NCBI RefSeq assembly: GCF_003018255.1
Contig: NZ_CP027441.1
DNA length: 64,000 nucleotides
Direction: 5' to 3' (one strand)
Source: Escherichia coli
Lineage (GTDB): Bacteria; Pseudomonadota; Gammaproteobacteria; Enterobacterales; Enterobacteriaceae
The position numbers were made by a program. This document shows, in pieces, positions 39,001 to 48,000 of the stretch (its first letter is position 1; every line of letters starts with the position of its first letter).

Positions 39001-42000
39001 GGGGTGCCGGGCCTGTAATATCTCCAGAGCATCACCGTCCAGCACACGAATAACGAGTCCCTGAATTTGAACGGCACAGACAGAACCGGAAAGCAGAAGA
39101 GTGAGTGCGAATATATATTTTATCATTTTATATTTTCCTGATTTATTTTTATGGGGATGACGTTAATATTACGCGTTGAAAAAATACATGTTTTTATCTT
39201 CTGAGGCACCTGACTTCACGGAGGATATTTATTCCTGTAGGCTAATAACTGTGTCTGGGTAAACAACAGATATCTGGTGGCGATATGCAGGAACGTATTG
39301 ATTATCATATTGAGAAATATCAGTTCAGGGCGAGGAATGAGTCTCCACGACTGATGCGTCAGTGGGCTTATGTCATGCGTGAATGCCGGGAGACCAGGGC
39401 TGGAGCCAGGGAGCGACTGCGGACAGCATTACTGAATGTTGATGATGTGACCAGTTTTGAGCTGCCGTTTCGTCTGCTGTTAACCCGGACACCGCAGATG
39501 ATTGACACTCTGCGTCGGGAATGGCTACTCAGCCAGAAAAAAGCCCTGTTCAACGGGCGGCTGCGGGGATGTGTATACAGTCTGCAGAATGACTTATCCG
39601 GCGTGCCGGATTGTTTCAGCTACAGTCTTGCGACGCGAATACGGCGGATGGACTGCTATGGCATGACGGCACGTTGTTTCACTGATATCGCCGGGCAGGT
39701 TAAAGCCCCGACGGCACGACTGAAACTGGCGCTGGAAAGCGGGTTGCTGGTAACGGCACTGGATGGCCTGTTCTGGCTGGGAACTCAGCGAATTGCCGCT
39801 GATGTGCAGAGACTGCGTCAGTCAGGTATGGTGATAGTCACCCGGGAAGTTGAGGTGTCAGATGCCCTGACCGGAACCACCAGACTGAGTTCCTGCTGTA
39901 AAGACTCCCGTCCAGTAACCAAGAATGACATCATTTGGATTCACTTCACCGTTAATCAGTAACCCGATGCCGGCATTCGCTCCTGCACCTATCAGACTTG
40001 TAGTGGCTGCCGCCCCTGGCAATAGCGGCCATACCATTGCACTTCCCATCGCTGCAACTGCTGTTTCACACGAAACCGGCGTACCACCACTGCACGCCTC
40101 TCTAATCGCAGTCTGCTGCTCTTCCTGCCATTTCTCTGCAGTCCCTGCTTTGTTCGCTTCCGCTGCTGCCAGTACATGCGCCAGTGAGTTATTCTCAACG
40201 ACAAAAATCCCGATCATTACATATGAATTATTTGTTAACGGACACCAAAAATCCAGAAGACCAAACCGGTTGGTACACCTAATAAACTAATTTTTAAAAT
40301 TGTAATGAGCTCCTCTTTTCCGAAAGGGAAAGGTTTATCAAAGTCCCAGACTAACCACCCCTTAAGAAGGTAAGAAAAGATCCCGAGAATAATTAAAGCT
40401 ATACACATAAAAAAACACATAACTAGCAATGCCTTTATGGATTTATTAGTACTATTTAGCCTCATTTTCACCTCCAGATACATTTTTCTTCAAAGTATCG
40501 CCGGCTACTCCTGAAACAAAAGAATCACCTAAATTCCCCATAATTGATGGAACAGAGCTTTGTTGTGCTGGTTTAGTTATGGTCCATACACCAGTCGGGA
40601 CCCACTCATATTGCTTTGATACAGGGTTAAGAACCTTGTCCATTGGTATCTTGATAAGGTTACCAGTTGCATAACCAGCATCGGCACCAGCCTTACTTAA
40701 TATGGCAGAAATGAATGGATCATCTCCACTTATTTCTCCTTGATAATAACCGCCTACTGCATTCCATGTCACGGTTGGATTATAACCTTTACCAGCAGTA
40801 TGTCCTACCCACGTAATATGGACACAGGCCTAAGCGAGGTTCTGGTTTTCAAATTGTTCCGGACTGAGGCCGCCACACCAACTGTGCTGTCGCCAGCGAG
40901 TGTAATCACATTCGATATAATTAAACACCGTTGCCCGCATTATTTCCCGGCTGATAAAGTGTTCTCCATGGATACATTCCACTTTCAGCGAATGAAAGAA
41001 GCTTTCCACGCAGGCATTATCGTAGCAGCAACCTTTTGCGCTCATACTTCCACGCAGATTATGCCGCTTCAGTTGCGCCTGATAATCTGCTGAACAGTAC
41101 TGGCCTCCACGGTCCGTGTGAACGATAACGTTCCGGGGCCTCTTACGCCGCCACAGCGCCATCTGCAGGGCATCGCAGGCCAGTTGCGCCGTCATGCGTG
41201 GCGACATTGACCAGCCAATAACGGCACGTGACCACTGCCAGATACAGCCAGCCTTCATCTGTACGTAAGTACGTGATGTCTCCTGCCCACTTCTGGTGCG
41301 GGCCACTGGCGTAAAAATCCTGCTCCAACAGATTTTCTGACACAGGCAGGCCGTGTGCGCGGTAGCTGACCGGGCTGAACTTCCGGGAGGCCTTTGCCCT
41401 CAGTCCCTGACGGCGCAGGCTTGCCGCCACGGTTTTTACGTTAAAGGGGTAACCCTGAGCACGCAGTTCATCCGTCAGGCGTGGGGCACCGTAACGCTGT
41501 TTTGACCGGGTAAAAGCCGCGAGGACAACGCTGTCGCAGTGTTGGCGGAACTGCTGACGCGTGCTTATCCTTGTCCGCCGCTGACATCACGTATACCAGC
41601 CGCTGCGGGCCACCCGGAGCACGCGGCACATTGCTTTGATGCTGAACTCAGCCTGATGTTTTTCAATAAAGACATACTTCATTTCAGGCGCTTCGCGAAG
41701 TATGTCGCGGCCTTTTGGAGGATAGCCAGCTCTTCATCCCGTTCTGCCAGCTGGCGTTTGAGACGTGCAATCTCGGTAGACATCTCCAGTTCACGTTCAG
41801 AAGACGTCTGCTGATTTTGCTGTTTACTGCGCCAGTTGTAGAGCTGTGATTCATACAGGCTGAGTTCACGGGCTGCGGCAGTAACACCGATGCGTTCAGC
41901 AAGCTTCAGGGCTTCACTGCGAAATTCAGGCGAATGCTGTTTACGGGGTTTTTTACTGGTTGATACTGTTTTTGTCATGTGAGTCACCTCTGACTGAGAG

Positions 42001-45000: not shown

Positions 45001-48000
45001 GTGGAAAGCTTCTTTCATTCGCTGAAAGTGGAATGTATCCATGGAGAACACTTTATCAGCCGGGAAATAATGCGGGCAACGGTGTTTAATTATATCGAAT
45101 GTGATTACACTCGCTGGCGACAGCACAGTTGGTGTAGCGGTTTCTGTCCGGAACAATCTGAAAACCAGCCCCCAGCTTAGGGGGAGGGACCATCTTACGT
45201 GGGTAAGATCACTCAATTGTTACCTGGCAAAACAAGCATCACAAGACATTGCAGACTGTGCACTTACGTTGAGTTCAGGTGGAAAGCCGCTTCTACAGTG
45301 ACCTGTTTTATGCTGAAATCGAATAGACCATGCGGATATCCATCAACAGGCTTGCTGGAGCAGTGGTCTTGTATCTTTTGTTTTGTCAGTAATATTTGTT
45401 TTTTGTAAAAAGCAAATATAAATTATTCTCATTTTTGTTTGTGTTTGTGTATTTTCTTGCCGATTAACATGATCGGAGATTAGTAATATGCGAATAACCA
45501 TTTTGGCTTCCGTCGTCATTCCCTGTCTCGGGTTTTCAGCCAGTTGCATGGCCGCAGAGGATGTGATGATTGTCTCGGCATCCGGCTATGAGAAAAAACT
45601 GACTAATGCAGCCGCCAGTGTATCCGTGATCAATCAGGAGGAATTGCAGTCCAGTCAGTACCACGATCTGGCAGAGGCACTGAGATCAGTGGAGGGGGTA
45701 GATGTTGAAAGTGGTACGGGTAAAACCGGTGGGCTGGAAGTCAGCATTCGTGGAATGCCAGCCAGTTACACGCTGATACTAATTGATGGTGTCCGTCAGG
45801 GCGGGAGCAGTGACGTGACTCCCAACGGTTTTTCTGCCATGAATACAGGGTTCATGCCCCCTCTGGCCGCGATTGAGCGTATTGAGGTTATCAGAGGGCC
45901 TATGTCCACACTGTATGGCTCTGATGCAATGGGCGGTGTGGTGAATATCATTACCAAAAAGAATGCAGACAAATGGCATTCTTCCATCAACGCAGGGCTG
46001 AATCAGCAGGAAAGCAACAAATGGGGCAATAGCAGCCAGTTTAATTTCTGGAGCAGTGGCCCCCTTGTAGATGATTCTGTCAGCCTACAGATCCGCGGCA
46101 GCACACAGCAGCGTCAGGGCTCATCGGTCACATCCCTGAGCGACACAGCAGCCACGCGTATTCCTTATCCCACGGAGTCACAGAATTATAATCTTGGGGC
46201 GCGTATTGACTGGAAGACTACGGAACAAGATATGCTCTGGTTTGATATGGATACCACTCGACAGCGTTATGATAACCGGGATGGTCAACTGGGCAGTCTG
46301 ACAGGAGGATATGACCATACTCTGCGCTATGAGCGAAACAAAATTTCAGCTGGCTATGATCATGCTTTCACCTTCGGTACCTGGAAATCGTATCTGAACT
46401 GGAACGAGACGGAAAATAAAGGTCGTGAGCTTGTACGTAGTGTACTGAAGAGCGACAAATGGGGGCTTGCCGGTAAACCGCGGGAGCTTAAGGAGTCTAA
46501 CCTTATCCTGAATTCATTGCTGCTTACCCCTCTGGGAGAATCTCATCTGGTTACTGTGGGGGGAGAGTATCAGAGTTCGTCCATGAAAGATGGGGTTGTC
46601 CTTGCCAGCACAGGTGAAACTTTCCGACAGAAAAGCTGGTCGGTATTTGCTGAGGATGAGTGGCATCTTACGGATGCTCTTGCGCTGACTGCAGGCAGTC
46701 GCTATGAACATCATGAGCAGTTCGGGGGACACTTAAGTCCGCGTGCATATCTGGTCTGGGACGTGACCGATGCCTGGACGCTGAAAGGCGGTGTGACCAC
46801 GGGATATAAGGCTCCCAGCATGGGACAGTTACATAAGGGGATCAGCGGCGTATCCGGGCAGGGACGTACGAATCTACTAGGTAACCCCGAACTGAAGCCG
46901 GAAGAGAGTGTAAGTTATGAAGCGGGGGTATATTACGATAACCTCGCCGGTCTGAATGCTAATATTACAGGCTTTATAACAGACTTCTCCAACAAGATTG
47001 TCTCTTATTCCATTGATGATAACACCAACAGCTATACAAACAGCGGAAAGGCCCGCTTACATGGTGTGGAATTTGCCGGCACATTGCCACTGTGGTCAGA
47101 GGATGTCACTCTATCGTTGAATTACACTTGGACTCAAAGTGAACAACGTGATGGTGATAACAAAGGTGCACCACTGAGCTATACTCCTGAACACATGGTG
47201 AATGCGAAACTGAACTGGCAGATCACCGAAGAAGTTGCCTCATGGCTGGGAGCTCGCTATCGCGATAAAACTCCACGCTTCACCCAGAATTATTCGTCGC
47301 TGAGTGCAGTACAGAAGAAAGTGTATGATGAGAAAGGAGAATACCTGAAAGCCTGGACTGTGGTGGATGCTGGTATGTCGTGGAAGGTGACGGACACCCT
47401 GGCGCTGAATGCTGCTGTGAATAATGTGCTCAACAAGGATTACAGTGATGTGAGCCTGTACCGTGCCGGCAGCAGCACACTTTATGCCGGTGATTACTTC
47501 CAGACGGGAGCCTCGACAACGGGCTATGTGATACCTGAGCGAAATTACTGGATGTCGCTGAACTATCAGTTCTGATAACAATAAAAATCCATTACTGACG
47601 GTAGCATACGTTGTCACTGTAGCTCCAAGCGGAACAGTGGCAACGTTTTAAGGTTAAGTGAATTTCCGACCCGCTAATGAGATTTCGGTAAATGTTAACG
47701 GAGAGATGTATTTACGCTCATTTATTGGTGAGATTTACGTTTCTGCCTCCGTGAGCGCACTGAACGCAATTTATCCGTTAGCAGGCATGAAAATGGCAAA
47801 AGCTCAAAGAGCGTAGTGTTAACCGTAAAATCCAGTTACTCTTTGCCCTCGTATCCATCGAGATAAACCGCAGAAATGGTGTCTGCCATTAGTTTCATTT
47901 TTTTCGGCGAAGGCATATCGCTGTTTGTGTATTTTCTGCCAGCAAAGGTTGTTGTACTCTGGAGTGAATGAAAAAATTTTTCTGAGTGGAATTCTTTTAC

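Follow-up and report, generated by a model that had tools for sequence, protein, structure and literature searches.

Structure of the saa locus

The window analysed here is a stretch of 64,000 nucleotides (nt) of Escherichia coli DNA (contig NZ_CP027441.1, assembly GCF_003018255.1), and the region described is part of a pO113-type virulence plasmid of E. coli strains that produce Shiga toxin (STEC). We focused on saa, a gene of 497 amino acids (aa) whose identical counterpart in relatives is called 'autoagglutinating adhesin Saa' by RefSeq, and on the two insertion sequence (IS) elements of IS3 type that enclose it. An earlier note on the sequence had placed these elements within 40800-45211; two elements indeed lie there, with limits corrected to 40801-42043 and ~44110-45213. 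The features of the two elements and of the gene between them were as follows.

40801-42043, minus strand: IS3-a, the left copy, a near-complete IS3 (alignment with K-12 IS3)
41679-41987, minus strand: intact, InsE-like orfA of the left copy, an open reading frame (ORF) of 102 aa (ORF list; Pfam HTH_Tnp_1, E = 5.7e-10)
41587-41589, minus strand: left-copy orfB nonsense codon, TGG>TGA, at IS3 position 457 (alignment, motif position)
41229-41235, minus strand: 14-bp deletion junction of the left copy, with one GTGGTCA left and orfB frameshifted
40875-41716, minus strand: left arm of an 842-bp perfect inverted repeat (longest identical stretch computed)
42387-43880, plus strand: saa, autoagglutinating adhesin gene, 497 aa (ORF list; RefSeq name of the identical gene in relatives)
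~44110-45213, plus strand: right element, a mosaic with an IS3 core within the ends of a diverged IS3-family relic (ISx)
44110-44293, plus strand: ISx 'part A', the 5' part of the right element, an orfA remnant without a left inverted repeat
44294-45135, plus strand: IS3-type right arm of the 842-bp perfect inverted repeat (longest identical stretch computed)
44421-44423, plus strand: nonsense TGA of the right copy, IS3 position 457
44775-44781, plus strand: junction of the 14-bp deletion in the right copy
~45112-45213, plus strand: ISx-type 3' end of the right element, with the outer inverted repeat ...CTTACGTGGGTAAGATCA (start approximate)

IS3 is about 1258 bp long and is bounded by imperfect terminal inverted repeats of ~39 bp that run 5'-TG ... 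CA-3'. Its orfA and orfB overlap, a -1 frameshift between them gives the OrfAB transposase, and insertion leaves a 3-bp target-site duplication. Both copies of the window were aligned end to end with K-12 IS3, and IS3 positions are given in K-12 numbering. IS3-a was 98.2% identical to K-12 IS3 over positions 3-1254, with a length of 1243 bp versus the canonical 1258 bp, the difference corresponding to the 14-bp deletion and to one base missing at the tip of the right inverted repeat (IRR). Its left inverted repeat (IRL, 42005-42043), which adjoins saa, has a perfect end (TGATCTTACCC); its IRR (40801-40839) faces outward, and the tip reads TGTCCTACCC where IS3 has TGATCCTACCC (TGTCC versus TGATCC). 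The orfA/orfB overlap motif CCAAAAGG was also present in this copy. No target-site duplication was found around it, the flanks being TTG and TAC.

The right element was less regular. Its part A differs from IS3 by gaps of 16 bp and 11 bp and an insertion of 4 bp, and its orfA remnant stops at a TAA (44293-44295) located at the frameshift motif, so that the divergent, stop-containing orfA described in the earlier note was recovered. The stretch 44110-44293 was 95-99% identical to native ISx of the plasmids of CB6837, W24 and 94-3024. Likewise, the 3' end matched that of native ISx exactly; its identity to IS3 was ~84%, with about 10 of 40 positions of the outer IRR differing from the IS3 IRR. 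Taken together, the ends of the right copy were only 84-90% identical to IS3, while its core had the same sequence as the core of the left copy. The description of two IS3 copies thus holds for the left element, a near-complete IS3, and for the core of the right one, the ends of which are ISx and which lacks an IRL. Moreover, the two elements do not face each other, as had been stated: they point apart, with their orfA (IRL) ends beside saa and their IRR ends outward.

ISx itself was found as a 750-bp IS3-family relic between saa and iha in CB6837, W24 and 2012C-4431; it is 5'-truncated, carries internal deletions and has 84-90% identity to IS3. In only 28 E. coli records did matches cover at least 80% of ISx, and those examined were saa plasmids. 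A full-length, intact relative of ISx was not found in E. coli complete genomes, and outside saa plasmids the best ISx matches listed were ordinary IS3 or IS3-family copies, at ~87% identity.

The repeat finder reported inverted arms at 40829-41814 and 44196-45181 (986 nt, 98% complementary), with saa lying between them, as the earlier note had observed. Three changes from K-12 IS3 are common to both copies: the nonsense codon at position 457 (TGA-457), the substitution A746C and the deletion of 14 bp (IS3 809-822), which lies between two 7-bp direct repeats, GTGGTCA, set 7 bp apart. The presence of the same orfB frameshift in both copies was therefore confirmed by end-to-end alignment, and these common changes explain the ORFs of 95 aa, which are identical, and those of 158 aa, which are nearly so and differ at the C-terminus only. 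Since orfB is disrupted in both copies at the same places, neither would give OrfAB through the -1 frameshift. No other IS3-type sequence was detected in the window, which consequently encodes no IS3 transposase, in agreement with the earlier proposal that both copies are defective.

The saa locus in related plasmids

When the flanks of other saa plasmids were compared, some had both elements, at positions matching those in the window, and others had only the relic on the right. In the latter, the layout was hypothetical ORF - IS3 - saa - relic - iha. An uninterrupted ISx was observed in this older layout in W24 and 2012C-4431. CB6837 also carries an uninterrupted ISx beside iha (L008:8618-9367 in extracted-locus coordinates, which are used for all L numbers), but with an IS91 between saa and ISx (L008 7045-8231) and with a left flank of IS66 type. 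In 2014C-3307, a different insertion sequence was located inside ISx (L022 8339-9662); the short stretch made up of the saa-ISx junction and ISx itself was apparently a repeated insertion target.

JNE170426 exhibited a complete IS3, here called IS3-b, inside ISx. The sequence reads ...GACATACTT, then the element (TGATCTT...GGATCA), then CTTCGCGAAG, with a 3-bp target duplication, CTT, and the corresponding empty site, GACATACTTCGCGAAG, was kept in W24 and CB6837. This duplication, made by the insertion of IS3-b and kept in relatives, was the only clean one observed. In other plasmids IS3-b was truncated to different extents. Only its first ~350-480 bp were left in 97.3 and STEC1587, fused to ISx within IS3 ~345-487, and in RM10809-3 positions 1-1006 of IS3-b were fused to ISx (junction at IS3 ~1006-1037). 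Judging from this series, the window type would most simply be a further derivative of IS3-b that was trimmed on both sides, leaving the 5' part of ISx, an IS3 core and the 3' end of ISx. Because IS3-b had the same site in every plasmid that preserves it, the arrangement with two copies is of single origin. A separate re-insertion of IS3 into each plasmid was also considered as a cause of the identity between copies and was rejected, as both the site and the CTT in ISx were the same wherever kept.

Inversion of the saa segment

The segment between the two copies was found in both orientations. The window, EH41, FWSEC0010 and JNE170426 had one orientation, and 2014C-3338, 94-3024, 2013C-4282, 05-3629 and JNE181771 had the other. 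In both, the outer ends stayed with their own flanks, and the breakpoints lay inside the repeats. The plasmid of 2014C-3338 carries the exact core haplotype of the window with the saa segment inverted: its ISx-type outer end is still beside iha and its damaged IS3 tip (GGGTAGGACA) is still beside the hypothetical ORF, while the inner parts have moved with saa. In 94-3024 (pO104_H21), both IS3 copies are complete and the CTT duplication is divided between them, one half on each, as predicted for a single crossover between inverted copies. At least two independent inversions are needed, one in the group of the window and another in plasmids whose IS3-b is full.

A regulatory inversion switch was considered and rejected, as the region upstream of saa is part of the segment that inverts and is carried along with the gene; no on/off switching of saa is thus expected. 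No recombinase gene was found in or beside the saa segment, either in the ORF list or in the RefSeq annotation of relatives.

Concerted evolution of the two copies

To compare the two copies within and between plasmids, both were extracted and aligned from 12 plasmids with two long copies, over IS3 350-1135 (in RM10809-3 the copies overlap only to ~1006). Ten core haplotypes, defined by seven single-base polymorphisms and the 14-bp deletion, were observed in these 12 plasmids. The two copies of a plasmid did not differ at a single position in any of them (0 differences in 12/12), and copies from different plasmids differed at 0 to 6 positions (eight plasmids compared pairwise). Moreover, the full-length pairs of 94-3024, 2013C-4282, 05-3629 and JNE170426 were identical over all ~1250 bp. 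The states of the two orfB defects were distributed as follows.

94-3024, JNE120442: TGA-457 in neither copy; 14-bp deletion in neither copy
FWSEC0010, S19-141, JNE170426, RM10809-3: TGA-457 in both copies; 14-bp deletion in neither copy
Window, 2014C-3338, EH41: TGA-457 in both copies; 14-bp deletion in both copies
2013C-4282, 05-3629: TGA-457 in neither copy; 14-bp deletion in both copies

Both copies were intact in 94-3024. Changes restricted to one plasmid were likewise found in both of its copies, namely T506A in EH41 and A640T in FWSEC0010, and both copies of JNE181771 (L019 3969-5106 and 7272-8405) had a 117-bp deletion in orfA (IS3 ~99-215). In a wider set of records read from match spans, the deletion state was concordant in 19 of 19 plasmids (both copies in 9, neither copy in 10, which were mosaic, and no mixed case). 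Since the two-copy arrangement arose once and lineage-specific changes are present in both copies, gene conversion is required. The existence of intact or less defective pairs in relatives also indicates that the defects are younger than the two-copy arrangement; this does not fit the descent of both copies from one already-defective parent, which the earlier note had deduced from their shared frameshift.

By match pattern, the 117-bp deletion of JNE181771 was probably also present in 2014C-4587, JNE082640 and OkiPb01697.

Alleles shared with a chromosomal IS3

The chromosome of EH41 (NZ_CP045213.1; IS3 at 2272-3515 of the extracted locus) carries an IS3 whose flanks are exactly those of K-12 IS3D, between ymdE/ycdU and dgcT, and which is thus an old orthologous insertion. 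This chromosomal copy exhibited T506A, A746C and the 14-bp deletion, as did both pO113 copies of EH41; it lacked TGA-457 and had a cluster of changes of its own at 637-675. To judge from these shared derived states, the pattern points to gene conversion between plasmid and chromosome. Among ~13,000 IS3 matches in 4,349 records, 11 saa plasmids and the EH41 chromosome were the only carriers of the deleted allele at 100% identity.

At least five backgrounds carried the 14-bp gap, namely the group of the window, the pair 2013C-4282 and 05-3629, the chromosomal copy of EH41, FWSEC0008 (left copy) and ISx, which reads GCAGT/AAGCACG at this site. The left copy of FWSEC0008 (L018:3830-4980) is an example of a diverged left copy with this gap in O91-type saa plasmids. 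Recurrent slippage and short-patch conversion from a relic donor are both possible sources of this distribution.

Gene neighbourhood

The genes and smaller features surrounding the two elements were the following.

34341-38243, minus strand: espP-type serine protease autotransporter gene
42044-42134, minus strand: ~30 N-terminal codons left of the orfA of a further IS3-family element (ORF 42006-42134)
44080-44103, plus strand: terminator-like hairpin and T-run downstream of saa, with relic sequence beginning just beyond
45488-47575, plus strand: iha, to the right of the right IS

From left to right, the gene order was the espP-type gene, a thermonuclease-family ORF and small ORFs, the left IS, saa, the right IS and iha. 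The region 40500-45500 matched plasmids of strains 2015C-3905 and JNE151685, and the sole difference from 2015C-3905 was one A in a poly-A run at 42223-42231 (A8 in the window versus A9). This run is located upstream of saa, and match spans suggested the extra base in other close relatives; it may represent either a homopolymer sequencing error or a genuine length variant upstream of saa.

The orfA fragment at 42044-42134 (MPISGKPYPEAFKIEVVKQIVDHGHSVSSV...) ends abruptly at the IRL of IS3-a and gave a weak Pfam HTH_Tnp_1 match (E = 0.0018), which was under the cut-off. The remainder of this element was absent across the left IS3, which indicates an earlier rearrangement at this site. In every relative (all loci), the stretch 42044-42386 moved together with saa.

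Within saa, a unit of 111 bp (37 codons) was repeated in 3.8 tandem copies at 99% identity (43194-43615). The saa coding sequence of relatives measured 1272, 1383, 1494 or 1605 nt; these steps of 111 nt suggest variation in repeat number.

On the left side, the minus strand carries a 128-aa ORF (38740-39126), whose counterpart in relatives is annotated as thermonuclease-family; some plasmids have it intact, and in others it bears the label 'internal stop'. Two small minus-strand ORFs, 39858-40217 and 40452-40772, adjoin the outer end of the left IS3. One of them starts ...IFVVENNSLAH..., with a VENN motif that recalls the pretoxin boundary of CdiA/contact-dependent toxins, and these ORFs may be orphan toxin fragments. 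A Pfam scan of both ORFs and of the right orfA remnant gave no significant match.

Discussion

We consider it very probable that the saa locus was built in place on a pO113-type backbone and that it is now a dead, recombining inverted repeat pair and not a transposon. As the comparison of plasmids shows, the older layout comprised the hypothetical ORF, IS3-a, a fragment of another IS, saa, the relic ISx and iha. A second IS3, IS3-b, then entered ISx in inverted orientation relative to IS3-a, duplicating CTT, and recombination between IS3-b and the similar ISx sequence surrounding it trimmed IS3-b to varying extents in different lineages, in the window presumably at both ends. Homologous recombination between the inverted copies, presumably RecA-dependent, has flipped the saa segment at least twice, and gene conversion, that is, non-reciprocal recombination, holds the two cores identical, so that a mutation in one reaches both. 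This exchange extends to the chromosome, where the EH41 IS3 at the K-12 IS3D site has several of the same alleles. The unit as it stands would be unable to transpose; this and any order of appearance of its defects are deductions.

Several points weigh against this reconstruction. The plasmids are related, and the number of independent conversion events is consequently lower than the number of plasmids. Recombination is deduced here from the static sequences of different isolates. A direct conversion of ISx by IS3-a would yield the same right-hand mosaic as the trimming of IS3-b, and part of the distribution of the 14-bp deletion may be due to repeated slippage between the 7-bp repeats. Finally, short-read polishing could, in principle, have made repeat copies alike in some assemblies; a homogenising polish would, however, account neither for the shared 14-bp and 117-bp indels nor for the agreement of independent records.

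The last point can be extended to the whole data set, by supposing that the copies look identical only through assembly collapse or polishing and that the orientation isomers are misassemblies. Repeats of ~1 kb are generally a weak point of short-read and hybrid assembly. This explanation is nonetheless extremely unlikely, as two separate pO113 records (NC_007365.1 and the re-sequenced EH41 plasmid) were base-identical at both positions, and three records of the 94-3024/O104:H21 plasmid matched the window over the same span and at the same identity, although they were not compared with one another. Moreover, the 12 plasmids came from several laboratories and countries and displayed 10 haplotypes, each in both copies, indels included, and the inverted isomers showed a coherent arrangement of their unique outer ends and of the split CTT. 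As a further alternative, each copy may have acquired the 14-bp deletion independently, through replication slippage at a GTGGTCA hot spot and without any exchange, in line with its position exactly between two direct repeats and with its occurrence on several backgrounds. Slippage cannot, however, explain why seven single-base polymorphisms and the 117-bp deletion were also always found in both copies, and the near-absence of the deleted allele among the ~13,000 IS3 matches shows that the site is not a strong general hot spot. We therefore regard independent slippage as very improbable.

The composite transposon that the earlier note had seen in this layout, formed by two copies of one already-defective IS3 with saa as cargo and immobile unless transposase is supplied in trans, was suggested by two inverted IS3-type repeats with identical defects around a single cargo gene. 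A source of transposase would also be at hand, as IS3 matches were found in 4742 of 5426 E. coli genomes and most chromosomes could supply it. The resemblance was superficial, however. No target-site duplication surrounds the 4.4-kb unit (GTA before 40801, CTC after 45213) any more than the left copy. The outer ends come from different elements, the right one being that of ISx and the left one an IS3 IRR with one base missing at its tip. The same neighbourhood, from the hypothetical ORF through saa to iha, also exists with only the relic on the right, and the defects postdate the arrangement, since the copies of relatives are intact or less defective. Among the matches listed, every saa-annotated record was an E. 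coli plasmid; on the right, the series saa-ISx-iha was common to all 20 plasmid loci read, and the unit was never observed at an unrelated site. The left flank consisted of the hypothetical ORF and espP in most of these 20 loci, and of epeA or IS66 in four, differences that are explained by inversion or by other insertion sequences. A composite transposon of this origin thus seems very unlikely.

The reading as a locus built in place can be set against known systems. With K-12 IS3 (IS3A and IS3D; insE/insF; IS3 family, IS3 group), the left copy shares 98% identity over its whole length, the inverted repeats but for the IRR tip, orfA and the orfA/orfB overlap, and the right copy shares its core sequence; the IS3-b insertion of relatives left the usual 3-bp duplication. 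Unlike K-12 IS3, both window copies are dead, through the nonsense codon and the 14-bp frameshift in orfB; the left one has no target duplication and a damaged IRR tip, and the right one has no IRL and foreign ends. Tn10 and Tn5 also consist of two inverted IS-derived repeats around their cargo, here a single gene, but the saa unit has neither target duplication nor working transposase, has the outer ends of two elements and was only ever found in this plasmid neighbourhood, where it was put together step by step. As in Hin, Gin, Pin and the fim switch, a segment occurs in two orientations; the saa repeats differ in being ~0.85-1.25 kb long instead of short sites, with crossover anywhere in the core. 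The closest parallels are inversions between IS or rRNA copies and repeated genes that evolve in concert, which share the long identical inverted repeats, the two orientations with breakpoints within the repeats and the lineage-specific mutations present in both copies. Nothing differs in principle from such homologous-recombination repeat pairs; the saa case is unusually well sampled and includes, in one strain, exchange with a chromosomal IS3.

IS-mediated inversions and gene conversion between repeated elements are established processes, and the saa flanks are a clean new case of this sort, in which IS copies evolve in concert. What is known of Saa function or of recombination mechanisms is unchanged by this finding. 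'Incomplete IS3-like elements' were drawn on the pO113 map by Paton et al. 2004 (PMC2213318), and remnant transposases near espP and iha were mentioned by Newton et al. 2009 (PMC2681110); no description of an inversion of the saa segment or of a homogenisation of its flanks was found in the literature searched.

The value of this data set lies in the survival, among sequenced plasmids, of the ancestral structures together with the intermediate and derived ones. Identical defects in two IS copies are not proof of a single defective parent, and, as a lesson for annotation, an IS - gene - IS layout does not by itself make a composite transposon. The orientation isomers of saa and the exchange between its repeats and, in one strain, with a chromosomal IS3 also affect assembly, typing and any inference on the movement of saa. 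A broader and rather doubtful idea is that defective alleles spread by gene conversion among the IS3 copies of a cell, across replicons, as a route of IS inactivation. It starts from the 14-bp gap, which occurs in ISx and in the diverged left copy of O91-type saa plasmids and which, within sequence that is canonical IS3 in other respects, recurs in both saa-flanking copies of two separate plasmid lineages and in the EH41 orthologue of K-12 IS3D. If this were true, a dead relic or plasmid copy would donate its lesion to live copies by short-patch conversion, thereby 'poisoning' chromosomal IS copies.

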